Shown in pieces: positions 1 through 12,421 of a DNA stretch of 12,421 bases (its first letter is position 1; each line of letters opens with the position of its first letter). This stretch comes from a virus (lineage: Duplodnaviria > Heunggongvirae > Uroviricota > Caudoviricetes), in IMG/VR virus record IMGVR_UViG_2925919700_000002, positions 1 to 12,421 of that record. One strand, 5' to 3'. The notes under the pieces are model-generated. The model was given only the letters and a program-made list of their open reading frames with translations. It was not told the DNA's origin and ran no database searches. The translations under genes were made by a program, and so were the position numbers.

Positions 1-1146
1 TTACGCCTTCTTTATATCCTCCATAATTCCAGAGTGGGACATATTTGGGACATTATCACCAAAAATGTCGTCTATTTTCCTCGAATGCTCTGTCAAATGA
101 TTAGGCGCAAGGTGAGCATACCTACGAACCATTTCTATGGACTCCCATCCGCCCATTTCCTGAAGCACTGATAATGGGACGCCTGACTGAATCAGCCAGC
201 TTGCCCAGGTGTGTCTGAGGTCATGGAAACGGAAATCTTCAATTCCTGCACGACGACAAGCTGATAGCCATGATGTCTTGCTGTCGATGCGCATCTTCCT
301 GACCGCAGGCGTTGATGTTCCATCTGCTCGCTTAGCCGCCTTGGTATGTACAAACACCCATTTGTGATGCTTGCCTATTTGATCACGCAACACTTTACAG
401 GCGGTATCGTTCAGCGCCACACCAATGGCGCGGTTTGATTTGCTCTCTTCTGGATTCACCCAGGCAACTCGTCGCTGCATGTCGATTTGTTGCCATTCCA
501 GATTTATGATGTTCGACTTTCTCAGACCAGTTGCCAGCGCAAACTTGACGACAGATTTCAGTGGTTCGGGGCACTCATCAATAAGGCGTTTTGCTTCCTC
601 CTTTTCCAGCCATCTGACTCGCTTGTTTCTGACCGCTGGTTTCTTGATGACAGGCGCTTTTTCCAGCCACTTCCAGTCGCGTTCTGCAGCACGGAGAATG
701 GCCTTTATCATGGCAAGATGCTTTGCCTTTGTCTGAGTTGATACTGGCTTTGGTTCATAAACAGGCGGTTCTTTACCTTTCCTGATGGCGGCCTGAACTT
801 TCTGTTTCCATATTTCTTTCGTCTTTCTGTTATGCATTCTGCTTACAGCAGAGTAAATCTTTGCCTCCGAGATATCTTTACCAGCTCGTTGCTGCCAGAC
901 GATCCAACCGAGAGTCATATCCCATGCCATGTATTCGTTATCGCCGTTTTTTACTCTACGACGATCTACTAAGTCACCGAAACGCTTTTCCATGAATAAT
1001 TCATAGGCTTCGCGTTCATCTGGCTCTACTTCCAGAGATACGAGTGCGATTTCATAAGCACGGCGCTCAATATCGTCTCGAACCTCTAGGCTGCTGATTC
1101 GTTCTTTGATTTCTTTAATCAGTTCTTTATTGGTAAATGTGGTCAT
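1..1146 (-). CDS. int: Phage tyrosine integrase (P22/DLP12 IntD family catalytic and core-binding domains) with a non-canonical N-terminal ~90 aa
   Basis: 381-aa ORF, stop at 1-3, ATG at 1144-1146. C-terminal region carries the tyrosine recombinase signature ([17 protein letters not shown] ... [39 protein letters not shown]). N-terminal ~90 aa are acidic and helical, unlike the MSLFRR-type arm-binding domain I recall for this family. Confidence 0.85.
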
Positions 1147-1508
1147 TATGCTCCAGCCTCCGGTGCTTTTGGCATTACTGCCCAGTGAGTGATATTGACG
1201 TTTTCAAGGTCCCCGACCTGAAATGTCCACTGCCATTCTCCGGTTTCTTTTTGTCCCCAGGTGTACCAGAGAGAACGCCAGCCAATCAGCCAGCCTTCTC
1301 CATTAGCATCAAATAACAGAACACTTTCATTTGCTGGTGGCAGTTCAGCTGACACTGGTATTATTTTGTTTTCCAGTGCCGCACATTTAGCTTCAAGCGC
1401 GTCGAATTTACGTAACAGGTACTCAGCATTTGTTTCATTCACTTTCAGATCTCGCGGTACACATTTCCCGCGAAGAAACCCTTCCATTTCGAAAACATTC
1501 ATGCGCAT
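1146..1508 (-). CDS. Hypothetical phage protein, DUF551-like C-terminus, translationally coupled to int
   Basis: 120-aa ORF. Its TAA stop overlaps the int ATG (TAATG on the minus strand). GGAG lies 8 nt upstream of the ATG at 1506-1508. C-terminal Trp-rich motif ([17 protein letters not shown] ... [12 protein letters not shown]) resembles the conserved DUF551 C-terminus. Function unknown. Confidence 0.6.
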
Positions 1509-1723
1509 TTGCGTAACTCCGATAAATCGTTAAAACGTTCCATAAACATCCCGTAGGCATGACCCGGTGCCAGTGGAATCACGTTGAACATCTCTGTTGC
1601 CGGGATGCCTTCCAGTACCGTGGCATTTGAAGAGAAGTATGGCTCCCAGCTGGAGCTGATATTTCGTTTTATCGATCGCGCACTGGCGATTGGTGTGCTG
1701 GCCTGATTTTGTGGAGAAAGTTA

Positions 1724-2107
1724 ATGCGTGATATTCAGATGGTTCTTGAACGTTGGGGAGCGTGGGCGGCTAATAATCATGAAGATGTGACCTGGTCGTC
1801 CATTGCCGCCGGTTTTAAGGGATTAATTCCTTCAAAAGTAAAATCTCGCCCGCAATGTTGTGACGATGACGCGATGATTATTTGCGGGTGCATGGCCCGT
1901 CTGAAAAAGAACAACAGCGATTTGCACGATTTATTAGTAGATTATTATGTAGTCGGTATGACATTCATGTCACTGGCAGGTAAGCATTGCTGCTCTGATG
2001 GTTATATCGGGAAAAGGTTACAGAAGGCTGAGGGCATAATTGAAGGGATGTTAATGGCATTAGATATCCGGTTAGAGATGGATATCGTTGTTAATAACTC
2101 TAATTAA
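1724..2107 (+). CDS. quuD: Late-gene antiterminator Q, phage 82 / DLP12 QuuD type
   Basis: 127 aa from ATG 1724 ([14 protein letters not shown]...), with GGAGAAAG 5 nt upstream. Cys clusters ([25 protein letters not shown]) are typical of 82-type Q. The ORF track's TTG at 1709 is a less likely start. Sits directly upstream of the late/lysis region. Confidence 0.85.
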
Positions 2108-2246
2108 TATGCCAATTGTTTACTGAAAGTTATTAAAAATGGGGCGTTGCAACGCCCCCAAAAATAAAGGGTAATATATAACAGAAGGTTTATATAGTTA
2201 GAAGCAAGGTTGTGCTCCTAAAGGAAGTGGCTTGAGGGAGCCACTT
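2108..2246 (+). promoter_or_regulatory. Presumed late promoter and Q-utilisation region (pR'/qut equivalent); exact -35/-10 not resolved
   Basis: Position immediately downstream of Q and upstream of a plus-strand terminator, as in lambda and phage 82. I could not pick a convincing sigma-70 hexamer pair by eye. Confidence 0.3.
2133..2158 (-). terminator. Rho-independent terminator on the minus strand, downstream of nmpC
   Basis: Perfect 18-bp GC-rich palindrome GGGGCGTTGCAACGCCCC (2141-2158). On the minus strand it is followed by ATTTTT; on the plus strand it is flanked by A-runs, so it is strand-specific. Confidence 0.6.
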
Positions 2247-2287
2247 ATATGTTGGGGAGGCAACGCCTCCCGCAACATATCTTTTTC
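2225..2287 (+). terminator. Tandem hairpins followed by a T-run on the plus strand; candidate late terminator (tR' equivalent)
   Basis: Hairpin 1 at 2225-2246 (AAGTGGCT / AGCCACTT). Hairpin 2 at 2247-2280 (ATATGTTGGGGAGGC / GCCTCCCGCAACATAT, one bulge). CTTTTT follows at 2281-2286. Confidence 0.5.
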
Positions 2288-2296
2288 GTAATCAGA

Positions 2297-3394
2297 TTAG
2301 AACTGGTAAACCAGACCTACAGCAACGATGTCATCAGTGCTTACACCGAGTGCTTTAGTGAAGTCATTTTTGTCAAGCAGGTTGATTTTGTAATCAACGA
2401 AAGTAGACATATTTTTGTTGAAGTAATAGGTTGCACCTACATCAACATATTTGACTAAGTCCTGATCGCCCCATACTCCAAGATCCTTACCTTTAGATTG
2501 CAGGTAAGCAACGGACGGACGCAGACCGAAATCGAACTGATATTGTGCAACAGCTTCGAAGTTTTGAGCTTTATTAGCAACGAAGTGATCAGCAAATACA
2601 GTCATATTCTGGGTTTCAGAATAGGTAGTGGCCAGGTAAATGTTGTTAGCGTCATATTTCAGACCTGCGGCCCAAACTTCTGCATTTTTACCGGAAGCAA
2701 ATACTTCAGGAAGAACTTTCCCTGCATTAACTTGAGTGTCGGTACGATCAGATTTCGCATAAGTTGCACCGATACCGAATCCTTCGTATTCATAGGTAGC
2801 AGAGAAACCGAAGCCATCACCGTTACCTTCGGTGTAGTTATCGAAATCGCTACGATCGTTTTTGCCTTGGTACTGAGCAGCAAAGTTCAGACCATCAACC
2901 AGACCAAAGAAGTCGTTGTTACGATAGGTTGCAACACCAGTGGTGCGACCAGTCATGAACACATCTGTTTGGGTCCAGGTATCGCCACCGAATTCTGGCA
3001 GAACGTCAGTCCACGCACCGATGTCGTATGCTACACCGTAGTTACGGCCGTAATCGATTGAGCCGTAGTCACCGAATTTCAGGCCTGCAAATGCAAGACG
3101 GGTTTTGTCTTTGGAGGAACCTTGAGATTCAGCGCGGTTGCCTTTGAATTCATATTCCCACTGACCGAAACCAGTCAGCTGATCGTTGATTTGGGTTTCG
3201 CCTTTGAAGCCCAGACGAACATAAGTAGTATCACCATCATCTGCATCGTTAGAGGAAAAGTAGTGCTTGGCATTAACTTTCCCGTACAGATCCAGCTTGT
3301 TACTGTCTTTATTATAAATTTCAGCTGCCTGAGCAGACATCGCCATCAGTACTGATGCAGCTACAGCAGAAATTGCCACTGTTAATTTTTTCAT
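2297..3394 (-). CDS. nmpC: Outer-membrane general porin, prophage-encoded NmpC/Lc type (OmpC/OmpF/PhoE family), intact
   Basis: 365 aa. Sec signal peptide [23 protein letters not shown] then AEIYNKD. Porin signatures throughout and a C-terminal ...VGLVYQF ending in Phe. AAGGG lies upstream of the ATG at 3392-3394. No insertion sequence interrupts it. Confidence 0.9.
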
Positions 3395-3982
3395 CGTGAG
3401 CCCTTTTTTTTGAACTATTATTAAAAAATGATGTCACTGCACGATAAATATTCATCTAATCAATGTGATTATTTCAAGATGTAAGTTTTAGTTTCTCATT
3501 TAATTTGTGAAGTAGATCTCTATTTTTATCTGAACTTTTTCTATCGAAACCTATTTATGGCTCTTATTTGAACAAAAATAAATCTATTAGCTAATTTATA
3601 TTAATGGCTGTTATTTATGGTGGTTCTATAATTCGTCTGTTTAATTTAAACCGGCTAAAAATAACACTGGAAATTATTTATTGGTTATTTGTTGAGGTTT
3701 TCTTATGTATTTGTGGTGATGTTTTGAACACTCGGTAGCATTCTCATAAATATCATTCAGTGGTTTACGTACGTAAAAAATTGGTTATGCTGTTAAGAGT
3801 GGTTACTTCGTCACACAGCTTAAACCCGCCGTCGAGCTGGTTTTTCCATTTTTTGAGTCTCGATATTAGCTGATAACTCAATACCTGAGTTATTCACTGA
3901 CTCGGAGTCAGTTACGTTTCTGCTTTTTTGCGATACGTTGTATTCCCTCAATTTACACCCGCTTTGTCTGCGAGGTGGGGTT
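3395..3982. promoter_or_regulatory. AT-rich 590-bp intergenic region: nmpC promoter/regulatory region and lysis-cassette leader
   Basis: No ORF of 60 aa or more. Degenerate direct repeats of TTATTTATGG at about 3552, 3611 and 3675, roughly 60 bp apart. Hairpin ACTGAC-TCGGA-GTCAGT at 3896-3912 upstream of the holin. Confidence 0.35.
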
Positions 3983-4198
3983 ATGAAATTCATGGATAAG
4001 TTAACAACTGGAGTCGCCTATGGCACCTCAGCAGGTAGTGCCGGTTACTGGTTTTTACAGCTGCTCGATAAAGTCACTCCCTCACAGTGGGCAGCAATAG
4101 GTGTGCTGGGTAGCCTGGTATTTGGCCTGCTGACGTACCTGACAAACCTTTATTTCAAGATTAAAGAAGATAAGCGCAAGGCTGCGAGAGGTGAATAA
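3983..4198 (+). CDS. essD: Class II pinholin, phage 21 S type, with dual-start motif
   Basis: 71 aa, [24 protein letters not shown]... Met1-Lys-Phe-Met4 gives antiholin and holin starts. Two TMDs and a charged C-terminus ([13 protein letters not shown]). GAGGTGGGG lies upstream. Stop overlaps the endolysin start (TAATG). Confidence 0.9.
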
Positions 4199-4695
4199 TG
4201 CCTCCATCATTACGAAAAGCCGTTGCTGCTGCTATTGGTGGCGGAGCAATTGCTATAGCATCAGTGTTAATCACTGGCCCAAGTGGTAACGATGGTCTGG
4301 AAGGTGTCAGCTACATACCATACAAAGATATTGTTGGTGTATGGACTGTATGTCACGGACACACCGGAAAAGACATCATGCTCGGTAAAACGTATACCAA
4401 AGCAGAATGCAAAGCACTCTTGAATAAAGACCTTGCCACTGTCGCCAGACAAATTAACCCGTATATCAAAGTCGATATACCGGAAACAACGCGCGGCGCT
4501 CTTTACTCATTCGTTTACAATGTGGGTGCTGGCAATTTTAGAACATCGACGCTTCTTCGCAAAATAAACCAGGGCGATATCAAAGGCGCATGTGATCAGC
4601 TGCGTCGCTGGACATACGCTGGCGGTAAGCAATGGAAAGGCCTGATGACTCGTCGTGAGATTGAGCGTGAAGTCTGTTTGTGGGGGCAACAGTGA
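4198..4695 (+). CDS. rrrD: SAR endolysin (signal-anchor-release lysozyme, phage 21 R type)
   Basis: 165 aa. N-terminal Gly/Ala-rich weakly hydrophobic SAR domain ([22 protein letters not shown]) followed by a lysozyme-like catalytic region. ATG overlaps the holin stop. Confidence 0.9.
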
Positions 4696-5153
4696 GCAGA
4701 GTAACCGCGATTATATCCGCTCTGATTATCTGCATCATCGTCAGCCTGTCATGGGCGGTCAATCATTACCGTGATAACGCAATCGCCTACAAAGCCCAGC
4801 GCGACAAAAATGCCAGAGAACTGAAGCTAGCGAACGCGGCAATTACTGACATGCAGATGCGTCAGCGTGATGTTGCTGCGCTCGATGCAAAATACACGAA
4901 GGAGTTAGCTGATGCGAAAGCTGAAAATGATGCTCTGCGTGATGATGTTGCCGCTGGTCGTCGTCGGTTGCACATCAAAGCAGTCTGTCAGTCAGTGCGT
5001 GAAGCCACCACGGCCTCCGGCGTGGATAATGCAGCCTCCCCCCGACTGGCAGACACCGCTGAACGGGATTATTTCACCCTCAGAGAGAGGCTGATCACTA
5101 TGCAAAAACAACTGGAAGGAACCCAGAAGTATATTAATGAGCAGTGCAGATAG
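4692..5153 (+). CDS. rzpD: Rz inner-membrane spanin (i-spanin), lambda Rz-like
   Basis: 153 aa from GTG 4692 ([29 protein letters not shown]...). N-terminal TMD plus coiled-coil periplasmic domain. GTG overlaps the endolysin TGA (GTGA). The ORF track's 4680 start is less likely. Confidence 0.85.
4912..5094 (+). CDS. rzoD: Rz1 outer-membrane lipoprotein spanin (o-spanin), embedded in the +1 frame of Rz
   Basis: 60 aa, [20 protein letters not shown]... Lipobox VVGC, then a proline-rich mature part ([15 protein letters not shown]). GGAG lies 7 nt upstream of the ATG. Lies wholly inside Rz. Confidence 0.8.
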
Positions 5154-5184
5154 AGCTGACCATATCGATGGGCAACTCATGCAA

Positions 5185-5478
5185 TTATTTTGAGCAATAC
5201 ACACGCGCTTCCAGCGGAGTATAAATGCCTAAAGTAATAAAACCGAGCAATCCATTTACGAATGTTTGCTGGGTTTCTGTTTTAACAACATTTTCTGCGC
5301 CGCCACAAATTTTGGCTGCATCGACAGTTTTCTTCTGCCCAATTCCAGAAACGAAGAAATGATGGGTGATGGTTTCCTTTGGTGCTACTGCTGTCTGTTT
5401 GTTTTGAACAGTAAACGTCTGTTGAGCACATCCTGTAATAAGCAGGGCCAGCGCAGTAGCGAGTAGCATTTTTTTCAT
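5185..5478 (-). CDS. borD: Bor lipoprotein (lambda Bor-type serum-resistance outer-membrane lipoprotein)
   Basis: 97 aa. Signal peptide with lipobox (LLITGC). Near-identical to the lambda Bor sequence as I recall it. Confidence 0.9.
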   Translation of the reverse strand: MKKMLLATALALLITGCAQQTFTVQNKQTAVAPKETITHHFFVSGIGQKKTVDAAKICGGAENVVKTETQQTFVNGLLGFITLGIYTPLEARVYCSK

Positions 5479-5768
5479 GGTGTTATTCCCGATGCTTTTT
5501 GAAGTTCGCAGAATCGTATGTGTAGAAAATTAAACAAACCCTAAACAATGAGTTGAAATTTCATATTGTTAATATTTATTAATGTATGTCAGGTGCGATG
5601 AATCGTCATTGTATTCCCGGATTAACTATGTCCACAGCCCTGACGGGGAACTTCTCTGCGGGAGTGTCCGGGAATAATTAAAAACGATGCACACAGGGTT
5701 TAGCGCGTACACGTATTGCATTATGCCAACGCCCCGGTGCTGACACGGAAGAAACCGGACGTTATGAT

Positions 5769-6179
5769 TTAGCGTGGAAAGATTTGTGTAGTGTTCTGAA
5801 TGCTCTCAGTAAATAGTAATGAATTATCAAAGGTATAGTAATATCTTTTATGTTCGTGGATATTTGTAACCCATCGGAAAACTCCTGCTTTAGCAAGATT
5901 TTCCCTGTATTGCTGAAATGTGATTTCTCTTGATTTCAACCTATCAAAGGACGTTTCTATAAGATGCGTATTTCTTGAGAATTTAACATTTACAACCTTT
6001 TTAAGTCCTTTTATTAACACAGTGTTATCGTTTTCTAACACAATGTGAATATTATCTGTGGCTAGATAGTAAATATAATGTGAGACATTGTGACGTTTTA
6101 GTTCAGAATAAAACAATTCACAGTTTAAATCTTTTCGCACTTGATCGAATATTTCTTTAAAAATGGCAACCTGAGCCAT
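5769..6179 (-). CDS. ybcV: DLP12-type prophage protein YbcV (DUF1398)
   Basis: 136 aa from ATG 6177-6179 ([11 protein letters not shown]...), with GGAAGG upstream. The open frame extends upstream to an ATG at 6221 and a TTG at 6302, so the start is ambiguous. Confidence 0.7.
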
Positions 6180-6464
6180 TGGTAAAACCTTCCATGTGAT
6201 ACGAGGGCGCGTAGTTTGCATTATCGTTTTTATCGTTTCAATCTGGTCTGACCTCTTTGTGTTTTGTTGATGATTTATGTCAAATATTAGGAATGTTTTC
6301 AATTAATAGTATTGGTTGTGTAACAAAGTGCGGTCCTGCTGGCATTCTGGAGGGAAATACAACCGACAGATGTATGTAAGGCCAACGTGCTCAAATCTTC
6401 ATACAGAAAGATTTGAAGTAATATTTTAACCGCTAGATGAAGAGCAAGCGCATGGAGCGACAAA

Positions 6465-6671
6465 ATGAATAAAGAACAATCTGCTGATGATCCCTCCGTG
6501 GATCTGATTCGTGTAAAAAATATGCTTAATAGCACCATTTCTATGAGTTACCCTGATGTTGTAATTGCATGTATAGAACATAAGGTGTCTCTGGAAGCAT
6601 TCAGGGCAATTGAGGCAGCGTTGGTGAAGCACGATAATAATATGAAGGATTATTCCCTGGTGGTTGACTGA
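6465..6671 (+). CDS. ybcW: Small DLP12-type prophage protein (YbcW-like), function unknown
   Basis: 68 aa, [22 protein letters not shown]... GGAG lies 7 nt upstream of the ATG. Divergent from ybcV. Confidence 0.6.
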
Positions 6672-6937
6672 TCACCATAACTGCTAATCATTCAAACTAC
6701 TTAACCTGTGACAGAGCCAACACGCAGTCTGTCACTGTCAGGAAAGTGGTAAAACTGCAACTCAATTACTGCAATGCCCTCGTAATTAAGTGAATTTACA
6801 ATATCGTCCTGTTCGGAGGGAAGAACGCGGGATGTTCATTCTTCATCACTTTTAATTGATGTATATGCTCTCTTTTCTGACGTTAGCCTCCGACGGCAGG
6901 CTTCAATGACCCAGGCTGAGAAATTCCCGGACCCTTT

Positions 6938-9028
6938 TTGATCAAGAGCGATGTTAATTTGTTCAATCATTTGGTTAGGAAATCCGCGGCAACGCGCGCC
7001 GAGACAGCAGCAAAACGGGCAGAGGATATTGCATCCGCCGTGGCGCTTGAGGATGCGAGCACGACGAAAAAGGGGATAGTACAGCTCAGCAGTGCGACCA
7101 ACAGCACGTCTGAAACGCTGGCGGCAACGCCAAAGGCAGTAAAAGCAGCCAATGACAATGCTGAGAAACGTCTGCAGAAAGACCAGAACGGCGCTGATAT
7201 ACCCGATAAGGGACGCTTCCTGAACAACATTAACGCGGTCAGTAAAACAGACTTTGCTGATAAGCGTGGTATGCGTTATGTGCGGGTTAACGCTCCTGCA
7301 GGTGCAACATCTGGAAAATATTACCCTGTTGTTGTTATGCGTTCTGCTGGCTCAGTAAGCGAACTGGCATCAAGGGTCATTATCACCACGGCAACGCGAA
7401 CCGCAGGCGATCCGATGAATAACTGCGAGTTTAACGGATTTGTTATGCCTGGTGGCTGGACTGACAGGGGGCGTTATGCTTATGGAATGTTCTGGCAATA
7501 TCAAAACAATGAACGAGCCATCCACTCAATAATGATGAGTAATAAGGGCGATGATTTGCGCTCTGTGTTCTATGTTGATGGCGCTGCTTTCCCTGTTTTT
7601 GCGTTTATCGAAGATGGCCTGTCAATATCCGCACCTGGTGCTGATCTCGTTGTTAATGATACGACCTATAAGTTTGGGGCAACAAATCCAGCGACTGAAT
7701 GTATCGCGGCGGACGTTATCCTTGATTTTAAGAGTGGGCGTGGTTTTTATGAGTCTCATTCGTTAATCGTTAACGATAACTTGTCGTGCAAAAAACTTTT
7801 TGCCACAGACGAAATTGTAGCGCGTGGTGGTAATCAGATTCGAATGATAGGTGGGGAGTATGGTGCATTATGGCGTAATGATGGCGCTAAAACTTACCTG
7901 CTGCTTACCAATCAAGGTGATGTTTATGGTGGCTGGAATACATTAAGACCGTTTGCTATTGATAACGCAACCGGCGAACTGGTTATTGGAACCAAACTGT
8001 CCGCAAGTCTGAACGGTAATGCATTAACAGCAACAAAGCTGCAAACGCCAAGACTGGTTTCTGGTGTTGAGTTTGATGGTTCCAAAGATATTACTTTAAC
8101 CGCCGCGCATGTGGCTGCTTTTGCCAGAAGGGCAACGGATACGTATGCCGATGCGGATGGGGGCGTTCCATGGAATGCCGAATCAGGCGCTTACAATGTC
8201 ACCCGCTCTGGCGACAGCTATATTCTGGTTAACTTCTATACCGGAGTCGGAAGTTGCCGGACCTTGCAGATGAAGGCACATTACAGAAATGGAGGTCTGT
8301 TCTACCGTTCCTCAAGAGATGGCTATGGTTTTGAGGAAGACTGGGCAGAAGTTTATACCTCGAAAAATCTTCCACCAGAAAGCTACCCAGTCGGTGCACC
8401 AATCCCGTGGCCATCAGATACCGTTCCGTCTGGTTATGCCCTGATGCAGGGGCAGACTTTTGACAAATCTGCATACCCGAAACTTGCAGCCGCTTATCCG
8501 TCAGGCGTGATCCCTGATATGCGTGGCTGGACGATTAAGGGCAAACCTGCCAGTGGTCGTGCCGTATTGTCTCAGGAACAGGACGGCATTAAATCGCACA
8601 CCCACAGCGCCAGCGCATCCAGTACGGATTTGGGGACGAAAACCACATCGTCGTTTGATTACGGCACTAAATCCACGAATAACACCGGGGCGCATACGCA
8701 CAGTGTGAGCGGTACAGCCGCAAGTGCCGGAAACCATACTCATAGTGTCACAGGCGCATCAGCAGTCAGCCAGTGGTCACAAAATGGGTCAGTACATAAG
8801 GTAGTGTCTGCGGCCAGTGTGAATACAAGTGCTGCAGGAGCGCACACTCATAGTGTCAGCGGCACAGCCGCATCTGCAGGTGCTCACGCACATACTGTCG
8901 GTATTGGTGCTCATACGCACTCTGTTGCGATTGGCTCACATGGACACACCATCACCGTTAACGCTGCTGGTAACGCGGAAAACACCGTCAAAAACATCGC
9001 ATTTAACTACATTGTGAGGCTTGCATAA
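6938..9028 (+). CDS. stf: Side tail fibre protein, 5'-truncated: distal ~680 aa only, lacking the N-terminal tail-attachment domain; start codon uncertain (possible pseudogene)
   Basis: Open frame of 696 codons from TTG 6938. Similarity to Stf begins near 6984 ([55 protein letters not shown]). Conserved C-terminal block (GAPIPWPSD ... [31 protein letters not shown] ... [18 protein letters not shown]) matches lambda Stf and StfR as recalled. No in-frame ATG with an RBS near the 5' end. Confidence 0.8.
8596..8957 (+). repeat. His-x-His repeat array within the stf 3' region
   Basis: Repeated [15 protein letters not shown] units (8688-8732 and 8838-8882) plus shorter HTHS/HAHT/HGHT units. These are coding repeats, typical of the fibre-tip domains of lambda Stf and T4 gp37-type fibres. 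Confidence 0.7.
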
Positions 9029-9603
9029 TGGCATTCAGAATGAGTGAACAACCACGGACCATAAAAATTTATAATCTGCTGTCCGGAACTAATGAATTTA
9101 TTGGTGAAGGTGATGCATATATTCCGCCTCATACAGGTCTGCCAGCAAACAGTACCGATATTGCACCGCCAGATATTCCGGCTGGTTTCGTGGCTGTTTT
9201 CAACAGTGATGAGTCATCGTGGCATCTCGTTGAAGATCATCGGGGTAAAACGGTTTATGACGTGGCTTCCGGCGACGCGTTATTTATTTCTGAACTCGGC
9301 TCATTACCGGAAAATGTCACCTGGTTATCCCCGGAAGGGGAGTTTCAGAAGTGGAACGGCACAGCCTGGGGGAAGGATACGGAAGCAGAAAAACTGTTCC
9401 GGATCCGGGAGGCGGAAGAAACAAAAAACAGCCTGATGCAGGTAGCCAGTGAGCATATAGCGCCGCTTCAGGATGCTGTGGATCTGGAGATCGCAACGGA
9501 GAAAGAAACCTTGTTGCTGGAAGCCTGGAAAAAGTATCGGGTGTTGCTGAATCGTGTTGATACATCAACTGCACCGGATATTGAATGGCCAGCCCTACCG
9601 TAG
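9028..9603 (+). CDS. tfa: Tail fibre assembly protein (Tfa)
   Basis: 191 aa. ATG overlaps the stf stop (TAATG). Conserved C-terminal Tfa block [37 protein letters not shown]. Confidence 0.85.
9455..9568 (+). repeat. Direct repeat copy A (tfa 3' conserved block)
   Basis: About 114 bp, roughly 85% identical by eye to 12226-12340, in the same orientation. Confidence 0.7.
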
Positions 9604-9679
9604 GGTAAGATATATAAATTCTATAATTAGAAGTATCTTTCCATTTAAGGCTAGGAAGGGGGGCTTGGAAAACGTAAGG

Positions 9680-9703
9680 AATCTCACACCGAGATTATTT
9701 TTA
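9680..9703. terminator. Weak hairpin between convergent tfa and recombinase genes; possible bidirectional terminator
   Basis: Stem AATCTC / GAGATT with loop ACACC at 9680-9696, followed by ATTTTT on the plus strand. Short stem, low confidence. Confidence 0.3.
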
Positions 9704-10291
9704 TATATCAGGTGTCTGATTTTTTGCTTTAGCTCTTAAAATGGTTTGCCGCGAGGTTTTGAATTCTTGGGCAATGTCACTTATATTTATACCTGACTTA
9801 ATTTGCTCTAGTACCCTCTGTATTTGTTCATCATTTAACACAGGTGGGCGACCAAATCGCTTTCCTGCGCCCCGTGCTCTTAATATCCCTGAATGAGTAC
9901 GCTCAAGTAAAAGGTCTCGCTCAAATTCAGCGACTGCTGAAATTACTTGCATCATCATTTTTCCAGGTGGACTGGTCAGGTCAACGCCCCCCAATGCTAA
10001 GCAATGCACTTTGATACCTGCTTTGGTCAGTTGTTCCACCGTTTTACTGATATCCATTGGATTACAACCGAGGCGATCCAGTTTTGTGACAATCAATGCA
10101 TCACCTCTTTTCAGTCGATCAAGCAACTGGTTAAAACCAGGACGCTCACTGGTTGCTGCTGAGCCGCTAATTTGTTCTTCAATTATTTGCTGAGATTTGA
10201 TGTTAAAACCTGCACTTTCGATTTCCCGACGTTGATTTTTGGTTGTTTGTTCCAGAGTTGATACCCGACAGTAAGCATAAATTCGAGACAT
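9701..10291 (-). CDS. Small serine recombinase (resolvase/invertase family), PinR/PinQ-like
   Basis: 196 aa. N-terminal catalytic motif [11 protein letters not shown] with the presumptive catalytic Ser. Conserved [12 protein letters not shown] and [14 protein letters not shown] blocks. C-terminal HTH ([19 protein letters not shown]). Position after stf-tfa on the opposite strand matches the Rac and Qin layout. Confidence 0.85.
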
Positions 10292-10609
10292 AGTGAGATC
10301 TTCTATACGAAATTGGTGTACATATCATAATGCATCTCAGAAAATAATTTTGATTATTTTTGTACATATTTGTATGTACACGTTCGAAAATAAACGAATG
10401 CGTATGCAACCCCGTAATTTTGGTGAGATCCAAAATCGATTTTGTGAAAAATGGCCTTAACTCGGTTTGTTTTTCGAGTTCCGGGCGGACTCAAGGAAGA
10501 AGAATAGTGTTGCGTGTTATTTTAACCAGATTTCAAGTTGTTTGGTCGTGGAAAAGTGGAGCAAAATGTTGTTAAAGTGGAAAAATGATAAAAAAGTAAG
10601 TTTATTATA
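10292..10609. promoter_or_regulatory. 318-bp AT-rich spacer upstream of the recombinase, with palindromes
   Basis: Inverted repeat TGTACATA-tttg-TATGTACA (10361-10380), with a TGTACATA half-site copy at 10317-10324. Perfect 14-bp palindrome CAAAATCGATTTTG (10431-10444). Direct repeats of AAGTGGAAAA around 10549-10585. No convincing ORF. Confidence 0.4.
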
Positions 10610-10843
10610 TTACATTTTACCATTTAAATTTTTGTTGTCTTTAAGAACTGATATCGCTGTTTGTAATAATTCTTTGTTATCCAGCCATGACTTTTTCTTT
10701 ATGTTTCCTTCAATGTAATCAAGCAATGTTCTGGTATTGATAGGTCTTCCCTGTTTTGCTACTTCCATTACAGCATCCCCTAGGATAATTCTTACTTCAG
10801 GAAGCTGCGCAGGGAACCACTTTAGGGTGTCTTTTGATTTCAT
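10610..10843 (-). CDS. Small prophage protein, YnaE/YdfK-like by position and size
   Basis: 77 aa from ATG 10841-10843 (MKSKDTLKWFPAQ...), with AAGGAA 7 nt upstream. The ORF track's start at 10876 has no RBS. Sits upstream of the pin-like gene on the same strand, as ynaE/ydfK do in Rac and Qin. Identity is from recollection, not alignment. Confidence 0.5.
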   Translation of the reverse strand: MKSKDTLKWFPAQLPEVRIILGDAVMEVAKQGRPINTRTLLDYIEGNIKKKSWLDNKELLQTAISVLKDNKNLNGKM

Positions 10844-11343
10844 GAAGATATTCCTTAAAATATTATTGATTTTCATTGCGATATTGTATGTCTGATTCAG
10901 TATATGTTGACTTATACATCGGTTTTGTCTGGGTTATTGGATATGCCAATCCCTAATTTTATTAGAGCATGACTAAAAATGCTGAATATGATAAGGAGCG
11001 AAGTGATTATCAGTATGCTGTTCATATAGCCTCGAATTAGTAATGTGTTATATATGATATAGTTGACAATTTTTATCCTGGGGGTTCTTAAAGTTCGTAG
11101 ATAAACATTGTCGTTTCAGGTATACAGGAATGCTAACAGGTGGCAGCAAAAATCAGGCGGTTTATGGCGCAAGCTGAAGTGGCAACTGCAAACTATCTTA
11201 TGCAGAGACTCTACACGGATTGGGTTTAAAAGTATACATAGATAACAGTTTTTATCTGAAGAAGAAAAATATCAAGGTGATATAGCCTATATGCCTATGA
11301 TGCGGAGGAATGAATGTGATGGGAGTGATGTATCTGAATAGTT

Positions 11344-11383
11344 GAAAAACCGCAGACACGCCTTAAGCAAGAACGTGCTGCGG
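11344..11383 (-). terminator. Rho-independent terminator downstream of the ybcY-like gene
   Basis: On the minus strand: stem CCGCAGCACG ... CGTGTCTGCGG (plus 11350-11383, one bulge) followed directly by TTTTT (plus 11345-11349). Confidence 0.6.
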
Positions 11384-11390
11384 TTGGATG

Positions 11391-12059
11391 CTATTTTTTC
11401 CCTGAAGCGGAAAACATTACTACAGTACCTTGAACCTTGGTTTTAACATTCTCGAAATGCTCTGAGAGTATATGTGTTAAGCCTTCTTCGGAATCTTTTG
11501 TGTTTGAAAAGATGCCTTTCTGATTGTAAATGCGCATCAGTTTTTGACCGAAGCTATTGTGCACAACTCCATCGCCAAGAATTGTGGCTCCGTATAGAGT
11601 TCCATCGTCAGTTAAGGCCTGCGCCGCATTGCGTATTACACAGCTTTTTGTAGATATATTTCCAGGCAGGCAGTGAAGAAGGTAAAACATGGAAATGGAA
11701 TCAAATTGACCATGTAACGCCGCGGGATAAGGTTCAAAAACATCATGGCTAATTTTATGTTTAATTTTTGATTCCCCAGCCCTTGTAGATGCCGCGTTCA
11801 GGCTAGCTTCGTTCAAATCCATTAAAGATATCAGACTACTCTCAGGTACGTGAGTAAGGTAAAACCCAGTTCCAACACCAATATCCAGATGGTTGTTACC
11901 TAAATGTTCCAGAAAGTGTGGAAGAAGGTGTTCCTTTGTAGGACATCCCCATGCAAGCCGATTTGATACTCCCAAAACCCACCAGTCATAAAGCTTTAGG
12001 GTAAGTGGTGTGTAAATTTTAGCCCCATCATCTGTGTTTTTTTTCATTAATTTCACCAT
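11391..12059 (-). CDS. ybcY: Class I SAM-dependent methyltransferase (YbcY-like), apparently intact
   Basis: 222 aa. Motif I DIGVGTGFY. The start may instead be the second Met (ATG ending at 12047), which has GGTG upstream; the first ATG at 12059 has no RBS. Confidence 0.7.
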   Translation of the reverse strand: MVKLMKKNTDDGAKIYTPLTLKLYDWWVLGVSNRLAWGCPTKEHLLPHFLEHLGNNHLDIGVGTGFYLTHVPESSLISLMDLNEASLNAASTRAGESKIKHKISHDVFEPYPAALHGQFDSISMFYLLHCLPGNISTKSCVIRNAAQALTDDGTLYGATILGDGVVHNSFGQKLMRIYNQKGIFSNTKDSEEGLTHILSEHFENVKTKVQGTVVMFSASGKK

Positions 12060-12115
12060 GTTATAGTTTTATTTGTGAATTAAATCAATTATGGCGATGA
12101 ATTACAAGGGGTTAA

Positions 12116-12421
12116 ATGCTGCCGCAGCATAGCGATATTGAAATAGCCTGGTATGCTTCGATACAACAGGAGCCGAATGGCTGGAAGACCGTCACCACAC
12201 AGTTCTACATCCAGGAATTCAGTGAGTATATTGCGCCACTGCAGGATGCTGTAGATCTGGAAATCGCAACGGAGGAAGAAAGATCGTTGCTGGAGGCATG
12301 GAATAAATATCGGGTATTGTTGAATCGAGTTGATACATCAGTAGCTCTGGGTATGAAGCTGTTTGTAACTCATGTTACAGTAACAGTCATTACTATCTCG
12401 AAGGTGCAAAATGTATATTGA
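12116..12421 (+). CDS. tfaX: Tail fibre assembly protein remnant (TfaX-like), carrying only the conserved Tfa C-terminal block
   Basis: 101 aa. AAGGGG lies upstream of the ATG at 12116. Contains [37 protein letters not shown], then an unrelated tail. Stop at 12419-12421. Confidence 0.6.
12226..12340 (+). repeat. Direct repeat copy B (tfa 3' conserved block)
   Basis: Partner of 9455-9568, same orientation. Confidence 0.7.

Follow-up and report, generated by a model that had tools for sequence, protein, structure and literature searches.

Crippled lambdoid prophages, in which immunity and replication genes are lost and some late or accessory genes kept, are familiar products of lambda nin5-type deletions, decay and domestication. 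DLP12 (qsr′) of Escherichia coli K-12 MG1655, inserted beside the tRNA-Arg gene argU, lacks immunity, replication and virion genes and retains a block running quuD-porin-essD-rrrD-rzpD/rzoD-borD-ybcV-ybcW-ylcI. The present analysis concerns a DNA stretch of 12,421 nucleotides (nt), positions 1 to 12,421 of the IMG/VR record IMGVR_UViG_2925919700_000002, called the window below in its whole length, and in particular its positions 1509-1723, which lie between the integrase arm of a prophage and quuD, the gene for the antiterminator Q. Taken as a whole, the evidence makes it highly probable that this interval is a multi-step deletion scar in a DLP12-family prophage resembling phage PhiR29_1, that one of its deletion ends, in the gene ydfU, is recurrent, and that Q has been orphaned.

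Escherichia phage PhiR29_1 (PV340556.1) is the intact relative, a complete, plaque-forming phage of 46.3 kb. Strain ECOR29 carries a matching prophage whose left arm is 100% identical to it. The PhiR29_1 genes are ordered int, (xis), yfdT, yfdS, yfdR, yfdQ, yfdP, cI, cro, ymfL/M, O, yfdN, then methylase, rusA, kilA-N, ydfU, Q, porin, S, R, Rz, bor, ybcV, ybcW, and last ylcI and Nu1, then through the tail genes. In the block from quuD to ylcI, DLP12 of K-12 is 97.9-98.3% identical to PhiR29_1 in DNA.

Judged by its sequence, the window is a DLP12-family cryptic lambdoid prophage at argU of E. coli. All 12,421 of its 12,421 bases align with the chromosome of strain MB06234, with 3 mismatches. 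At this near-identical locus the argU tRNA gene ends about 15-16 nt before window position 1 (9985 against 10001), and the sfm/fimZ cluster adjoins it. The argU-side insertion has an IntD-type tyrosine recombinase gene, truncated, abutting the tRNA gene (Pfam Phage_integrase, E 1.2e-46). The gene order quuD-porin-essD-rrrD-rzpD/rzoD-bor-ybcV-ybcW-ylcI is present, as read from Pfam and from the annotation of the identical locus and of MG1655. Immunity, replication and virion structural genes are absent, PhiR29_1 2209-11645 and 17013-38214 having no counterpart in the window. DLP12 of K-12 shares the att site beside argU, the IntD-type integrase, the block from quuD to ylcI and the same losses. 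It differs between int and Q, where its remnant comprises xisD′, exoD′, the insertion sequence (IS) IS3, emrE, ybcK-ybcN, ninE, ybcO, rusA and ylcG, with no ydfU stump; IS5 interrupts its porin gene nmpC, and it has a full-length integrase, whereas in the window the left arm is of the yfdT/S/R type, the porin gene is intact, the integrase is truncated and chimeric, and there is an invertase of the pin type.

The interval between the integrase arm and Q

Four blocks relate the window to PhiR29_1. Window 1-880 corresponds to PhiR29_1 41-920 (99.1% identity), 879-1618 to 1469-2208, 1616-6982 to 11646-17012, and 6981-7204 to 38215-38437, with tail-fibre segments afterwards. The two are colinear and 99.1-99.7% identical across all retained segments of window 1-6982, and have in common int, yfdT, yfdS, yfdR, the ydfU 3′ end, Q, the porin gene, the lysis genes, bor, ybcV and ybcW. 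Unlike the window, PhiR29_1 has xis, yfdQ/P, cI, cro, O, methylase, rusA, kilA-N, a full ydfU and all head and tail genes. The window is thus short of 0.5, 9.4 and 21 kb, at junctions that we call A (879/880), B (1616-1618) and C (6981/6982), and bears other tail-fibre, invertase and cold-shock genes at 7205-11349.

A sequence-only reading of this DNA had placed an integrase module about 215 bp from Q, with the early region missing in between. The distance and the loss are both confirmed. From the start of the minus-strand open reading frame (ORF) 1146-1508 to the Q start codon at 1724, positions 1509-1723 make up 215 bp; no repressor, replication or nin genes are found there; and, because window 879-1618 matches PhiR29_1 1469-2208 and 1616-6982 matches 11646-17012, about 9.4 kb are absent. 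The comparison of synteny with relatives that was then proposed gives the same picture, PhiR29_1 being colinear on both sides of the gap. The reading had also taken an open frame ending at 1703 for the C-terminal stump of a deleted gene. A real stump is present, that of ydfU, but it covers only 1617-1706: the last sense codon ends at 1703, the stop codon is 1704-1706, and the residues ahead of the ydfU part (..MPSS) are an opposite-strand reading of a second stump, that of yfdR.

The yfdR stump (1499-1618, minus strand) holds the last 39 codons and the stop codon of a gene for an HD-domain 5′-deoxynucleotidase, which occupies 2089-2625 on the minus strand of PhiR29_1; the Prokaryotic Genome Annotation Pipeline (PGAP) labels it 'HD family hydrolase, missing N-terminus'. 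It meets the ydfU stump at junction B, where the two sides share the microhomology TAC at 1616-1618 and the right end is the recurrent breakpoint TA/CCGTGGCATTTG inside ydfU (here and below, a slash within a sequence marks the breakpoint). The ydfU stump (1617-1706, plus strand) consists of the last 29 codons and stop of a gene for an Orf-like domain (DUF968) joined to an HNH nuclease. The protein search suggested earlier for this frame identified it: it matches Pfam DUF968 with E 7.9e-7 and 29.7 bits (cut-off 27.8) at profile positions 145-171 of 171, and it is identical to the C-terminus of the PhiR29_1 YdfU of 329 amino acids (aa), whose gene lies directly upstream of the same Q gene. The native ydfU-Q spacer follows (1707-1723, plus strand, 17 nt), colinear with PhiR29_1 and containing the Q ribosome-binding site (GGAGAAAG).

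Full-length YdfU contains DUF968 and an HNH-type domain and ends ...CRKHHDELHAD/TVAFEE. The zinc-finger HNH motif (CxxC...HH...CRKHHDELH) ends two codons before the breakpoint, in HDELHAD, and is deleted in the window; what is left reads as a gene fragment and not as a functional DUF968/YdfU (His-Me finger group 7) member. The loss at junction B begins midway through yfdR and stops 90 nt short of the ydfU end, taking the rest of yfdR, yfdQ, yfdP, cI/cro, O, methylase, rusA, kilA-N and most of ydfU. Positions 1509-1723 are thus best read as a deletion scar in which the yfdR 3′ end was joined to the last 29 ydfU codons, with the spacer and Q kept. Both stumps are already marked as pseudogenes by the NCBI pipeline/RefSeq. 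By itself the scar is ordinary and already annotated, one more allele of a decaying DLP12-type prophage; it is the base-pair-exact recurrence of the ydfU deletion end that is, to our knowledge, new.

A recurrent deletion end in ydfU

The right end TA/CCGTGG (window 1616-1618; PhiR29_1 11646-48, TA/CCGTGGCATTTGAAG) is common to at least 13 independent deletion alleles with different left partners. Four of these alleles were found without any constraint on the junction, in complete genomes. Named by their PhiR29_1 left and right ends, they are 5009/11648 (about 12 genomes, some with later IS1 insertions), 3377/11648 (2 genomes), 3296/11648 (about 17 genomes) and 2208/11648, the window type (2 genomes); about 170 complete E. 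coli genomes have an intact left part. If right ends were uniform over the 990-bp gene, four unconstrained alleles would agree by chance with p ~3e-8. The nine further alleles came from pattern scans of viral and metagenome contigs, in which the pattern fixed TA at −2/−1. Their left partners lie in yfdT (PhiR29_1 ~1468), in yfdR (~2257), upstream of the hypothetical gene 4262-4990 (4413), in ymfL (~6520), in the replication gene O (7296 and 7350, both in frame) and in a kilA-N gene, and two (L015 and L025) have no PhiR29_1 counterpart. Control scans of the same design at two neighbouring pseudo-sites returned 0 contigs, compared with 13 at the true site. The mappable partners are all in direct orientation (11/11), with deletions of 1.5-10.2 kb, and the alleles are spread over various prophage backgrounds that differ in integrase and Q type.

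The left partners have (C)GGNTA at their ends, much as the intact site has CGGATA. Compared with the intact left half at the five unconstrained positions −8 to −4, they give 29 matches in 55 where 13.75 are expected (p ~1e-5), and the perfect runs of sequence shared at the joints measure 2-5 bp. Owing to allele L022 and to variants at −3, a single fixed end, if there is one, must fall between −3/−2 and −2/−1, that is GGA/TACC or GGAT/ACC. On the plus strand of PhiR29_1, GGATACC occurs 9 times against 2.8 expected, and the other copies are not known as breakpoints. The shared right end points to an undescribed deletion hotspot just upstream of Q. Like other crippled lambdoid prophages, the window has lost immunity and replication genes and kept some late and accessory ones, and its relatives show IS-mediated erosion; unlike them, where deletion ends are usually described as scattered, one end here recurs exactly. 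The shared breakpoint therefore suggests that prophage erosion is not always random, and the site beside Q seems to seed repeated leftward deletions.

Three points weigh against such a hotspot. Patterns with TA fixed would miss different ends nearby, except at the two control positions. The joints of L015 and L025 could be mosaic rather than deletions. A 22-mer query for the converse alleles, in which the left half would be retained and joined to another right partner, found none, but it corresponds to a rare variant and had low power. In addition, no deletion allele was present among the GTDB species representatives, and the 120 contigs listed in an unconstrained sample contained almost solely intact ydfU genes.

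The order of events can be followed through junction C, where the late region (about 21 kb, PhiR29_1 17013-38214, terminase through tail genes) is lost. This junction was found in 3 of the 5426 genomes, MB06234 and AREA_497, both of window type, and MEI7BO1-21, whose early junction is of the 3296 type; the remaining 3296-type strains do not have it. Since junction C is shared by a 3296-type strain and the two window-type strains, the 3296 junction is older than that of the window. The scar, on this comparison of alleles, was made in at least two steps, junction B of the window being a further 1.1-kb loss ending at the same base pair. By the time the site was used again there, the cis copy of the HNH domain was gone. 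Since both an intact reference phage and graded natural intermediates are available, the order of decay is directly readable.

These data bear on the simplest account, a single random illegitimate deletion between short repeats, in which the shared breakpoint reflects common descent or coincidence. The microhomologies of 3 bp (TAC) at junction B and 2 bp (TA) at junction A are typical of random illegitimate recombination, and junction C shows no special motif and none related to the hotspot. The account is nevertheless already contradicted, by the 13 left partners that meet one right end across prophage backgrounds, integrases and Q types, by the empty control scans, by the agreement of the four unbiased alleles alone and by the reuse of the site within the lineage of the window; we give it next to no credence.

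Mosaicism deserves more attention, as lambdoid genomes are mosaics. The last 29 ydfU codons and Q could form an exchangeable module, moved by homologous recombination at a conserved linker between viable phages. Module boundaries do show up close by as alignment ends, one at the stop codon of ydfU and one some 35 bp before Q (window ~1689), yet closely related intact ydfU variants show no change in conservation across the breakpoint itself, and the 2-5 bp shared at the joints are too short for homologous exchange. The stump stands ahead of different Q types in L015 and L020, and in three alleles it is fused in frame to a real gene (O for L017 and L018, a 187-aa ORF for L025). Most left partners, however, lie inside genes, several of them antisense (yfdR, yfdQ) or within O, and since the joint products are without immunity or replication functions they are not viable phage modules. 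A module boundary is therefore a very improbable source of the shared end.

Several observations on individual loci may be added. In L017 and L018, two independent deletions at the hotspot, the N-terminal 60 or 78 codons of O are fused in frame to the 29-codon ydfU tail, and 5 of the 13 alleles have at least 60 open codons upstream of the joint, above the expectation for a random frame. In the viral contig L064, the left partner is the PhiR29_1 1468/1469 site, joined to the hotspot with a 7-bp microhomology, GGATACC. The ydfU gene of the K-12 Qin prophage (L177, 1680-1700) has a variant of the hotspot, CGGATA/CAGTGG, with A for C at +2.

Candidate causes of the fixed end

Deletions anchored at the nick sites of rolling-circle origins (the gene II origin of M13, pC194) were reportedly described by Michel and Ehrlich in 1986. 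As in those deletions, one end at ydfU is fixed, the other varies and resembles the bases 5′ of the fixed end, only deletions are seen, and the site is reusable. In contrast to them, no initiator or origin is known here, the nearest nuclease is of the HNH (His-Me finger) and not of the HUH kind, and the site lies in the coding region of a lambdoid phage replicating by theta and sigma modes. The resemblance would be one of working mode and not of membership. Abrupt cassette junctions have also been documented in rolling-circle plasmids (PMC5703833).

Most likely, a strand- and site-specific nick or a replication pause at GGA(T)A/CC would seed the deletions. The 5′ side, that is the right half, would stay fixed at the nick or pause, and a receding or slipping 3′ end would re-pair with upstream (C)GGNTA microhomologies. 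The pattern found is that of nick-anchored events: an end fixed to the base pair, variable ends like the 5′ sequence, and deletions only. A more specific version, which we propose tentatively and regard as possible rather than probable, is that the ydfU 3′ site GGATA/CCGTGG, which many lambdoid prophages have just ahead of Q, undergoes sequence- and strand-specific nicking, breakage or stalling, caused by a YdfU-type HNH nuclease in trans or by a host enzyme, and so acts as a reusable one-way deletion origin that strips the immunity, replication and nin genes and spares Q, the porin and the lysis genes.

YdfU is predicted to combine an Orf-like single-strand-binding domain with an HNH nuclease (PMC4118853, PMC5714182). 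As the nicking agent it is an obvious but unproven suspect, and because the HNH domain was already lost in cis before the site was reused, it would have to act in trans. With a ydfU-Q query, many genomes have more than one matching place (median 2). Two considerations temper the nick proposal. Single-strand folding of both strands, at intact and deleted sites, is unremarkable (z −0.2 to −1.0), the only structures at the site being a CGG/CCG mini-hairpin of 3-4 bp and a quasi-palindrome 16 nt to the right. Moreover the nick and its enzyme, although they make the leading explanation, are hypothetical here.

Instead of a nick or pause, a type II topoisomerase, a site-specific recombinase or a transposase might act on the retained right half. 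Such an activity would give a fixed end, the site is partly palindromic (CGG-ATA-CCG), and the joint recreates a similar, reusable site. Yet all events are deletions in direct orientation, with no inversion among the mapped partners, and the left partners resemble the left half-site only, not the right half. The window does carry a serine invertase gene (9701-10291); the hotspot, however, is unlike what we take to be invertase crossover sites, it has no convincing likeness to the prophage att core, and the annotated prophage region of the J0-type strain 13TMH22, the one allele-bearing locus checked for this, contains no recombinase gene. IS1 is active in this region of the relatives, but no IS or transposon end is found at the junction, and the IS1-associated deletions of the relatives end elsewhere. 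These alternatives fit less well than a nick or pause, and we consider them distinctly unlikely.

Other candidate causes were examined and set aside. The 27-bp prophage att core (GGTTCGAATCCTGCAGGGCGCGCCATT) gives a weak gapped local alignment to the hotspot and nothing more; owing to this weak match, and to the occurrence of the alleles with different integrases, recombination by Int at a secondary site was dropped. Adjacent deletion mediated by an IS was looked for at IS1 copies located at PhiR29_1 2545/4847, 2831-2839 and 2952/12129, none of which abuts the hotspot. Restriction sites (BstEII, KpnI, BtgI/DsaI, SexAI), RusA 5′-CC cleavage, Chi, Ter, the DnaA box, relaxase nic sites and a CRISPR protospacer-adjacent motif were compared by eye, and none fits all alleles.

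As to IS1 in the relatives, copies with adjacent deletions lie in the yfdQ/yfdR area of L003, L005 and L010 (with a 9-bp flank overlap in L010), and in MSB1_4I an IS1-associated deletion removes Q entirely; none of these deletions ends at the ydfU hotspot.

If the one-way deletion origin proposed above is real, it would be a built-in route to prophage crippling and fixation in E. coli genomes. Should a nuclease or a replication barrier be responsible, the site would offer a tractable in vivo system for illegitimate recombination. The hotspot could also help to explain why orphan Q-lysis-porin blocks survive so often in E. coli genomes.

Q, the lysis genes and the arms of the window

The Q gene quuD (1724-2107, plus strand) is intact and encodes 127 aa. 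Residues 1-118 of QuuD align with positions 1-118 of the Pfam Phage_antitermQ profile (PF06530; E 8.5e-54), and there is a distant match to the Q21 structures 6p18/6jnx (E 7.6e-8). That Q is cut off from its natural upstream transcription, as the sequence-only reading had proposed, agrees with the loss of the early region. Its further step, that Q must then use a local promoter, found no support: the consensus scan detected no sigma-70-like promoter on the plus strand of 1509-1723, and window 1-4300 contains fewer promoter-like sites (5) than shuffled sequences (8.8). The terminator scan found four terminator-like hairpins on the plus strand from argU to Q. A weak or non-sigma-70 promoter in the stump, beyond the reach of the consensus scan, may still exist, and transcription may still read through into Q from argU, 1.7 kb upstream; either would count against a Q left without transcription.

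The spacer between Q and the porin gene (2108-2296) contains on the plus strand a hairpin at ~2249-2282 followed by CTTTTTCG, to ~2290, which is a candidate for the late terminator tR′. The RNA of this spacer (~2108-2300) folds with −62 kcal/mol, z = −4.3 relative to shuffles, into four hairpins, and a GC-rich hairpin at 2141-2158 scores as a minus-strand terminator. The candidate tR′ itself, which counts against it, falls below the criteria of the terminator scan. The highest sigma-70-like match in the first 4.3 kb, GTGACA-18-CATAAT (10/12, 1944-1973, minus strand), is antisense within Q, a position that we take to be like that of the lambda promoter paQ. An active promoter here would work against Q expression and would transcribe yfdS and the yfdT′-′int remnant.

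Downstream, the holin, lysozyme, Rz and Rz1 genes are all whole, so that the pinholin/endolysin cassette was rightly described as intact. The phage 21-type pinholin/SAR (signal-anchor-release)-endolysin/spanin cassette (3983-5153, plus strand) looks complete. It consists of essD (3983-4198; P21-type holin, Phage_holin_2_1, with an MKFM dual start at 3983/3992), rrrD (4198-4695; lysozyme, Pfam Phage_lysozyme, with a glycine/alanine-rich N-terminus), rzpD (4692-5153; Rz, Pfam Phage_lysis) and, embedded in rzpD, rzoD (4912-5094; Rz1, Pfam Rz1). The intact gene for an nmpC/OmpD-type porin (2297-3394, minus strand, 365 aa; Pfam Porin_1, E 1.8e-156) lies between Q and this cassette. Elsewhere the porin gene is split, by IS5 in K-12 and by ISVsa5 in strain 2017-03-3CC.

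In K-12, according to work cited in PMC7918800 (its references 27-29), the DLP12 lysis operon is controlled by a Q-like antiterminator, RpoE and Hha, and the lysis module affects vesicle production. The regulatory question on Q and the lysis genes, and the idea of domestication, are not new, having been studied in K-12. For the window, Q has probably been severed from pR and from antitermination-dependent read-through, and what little of it is made would come from spurious or read-through transcription. The hairpins beyond Q would in that case end late transcripts, leaving the cassette near-silent save for the sigma-E-, Hha- and Q-dependent basal expression known from K-12. We infer that it is essentially quiet in this lineage.

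A rather unlikely alternative is that the arrangement is domesticated: Q, the porin, the lysis genes and bor would be retained because they serve the host (in envelope turnover, vesicles, biofilm), selection would have favoured the deletions as trimming, and Q would be transcribed from a promoter close by that might respond to stress. Three large deletions have indeed left Q, the porin, S, R, Rz/Rz1 and bor intact, content resembling window 1-3500 is present in 5086 of the 5426 E. coli genomes, and the K-12 module has the effects and regulators just mentioned. The consensus scan, however, gave no promoter-like site upstream of Q, and relatives lose the block freely, Q being deleted in MSB1_4I and the porin gene disrupted in K-12 and in 2017-03-3CC (where rusA also has an internal stop). 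Against K-12, the ratio of non-synonymous to synonymous polymorphism (pN/pS) over seven genes is ~0.14, from 10 synonymous and 5 non-synonymous changes. The value fits constraint, but because these are only 15 substitutions, too few, it cannot separate host selection from recent phage ancestry; it would also fit exchange with live phages, and PhiR29_1 is 99.7% identical over the Q-lysis block.

For the left arm the earlier interpretation needs revision, as its int/xis module is a truncated chimeric integrase without xis, and the supposed xis is yfdS, a DUF551 gene. Junction A (879/880) is a 548-bp deletion (PhiR29_1 921-1468) with the 2-bp microhomology TA, which took away xis together with the N-terminal part of int and the 12 final yfdT codons; the xis candidate of PhiR29_1 (HTH_17) falls inside these 548 bp. 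The 3′ part of intD (1-879, minus strand) retains the C-terminal 292 codons and stop with the catalytic domain, the N-terminal 95 codons being gone, and is in frame with the 5′ part of yfdT (880-1146, minus strand, codons 1-89). The resulting ORF (1-1146, minus strand) is an open 381-aa chimera of YfdT residues 1-89 and IntD residues 96-387, so that YfdT 1-89 stands in place of the N-terminal (arm-binding) region of a full-length integrase, and Pfam Phage_integrase spans residues 178-349. PGAP calls the identical locus 'site-specific integrase, missing N-terminus'. Next to it, where an excisionase gene might be looked for, lies the intact yfdS (1146-1508, minus strand; Pfam DUF551, with a YfdS-family annotation in MEI7BO1-21). 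With its integrase truncated and xis deleted, the element is presumably excision-defective. Translation of the chimera may still begin at the start codon of yfdT, which shares bases with the yfdS stop. On its right side, junction A (PhiR29_1 1468/1469, AAATGGATA/CCAGC) has the same GGATA/CC motif as the ydfU hotspot.

In the right part of the window, positions 9591-11349 (the invertase gene, ydfK and a YnaM/YnfT gene) are absent from PhiR29_1. Rfam has its sole match in the window here, to IS009 at 9371-9569, and nothing near Q. Two tail-fibre-assembly segments of 121 bp, 9447-9567 and 12220-12340, which are 86% identical and in direct orientation, flank the gene for this Pin/Hin-type serine invertase (9701-10291, minus strand).

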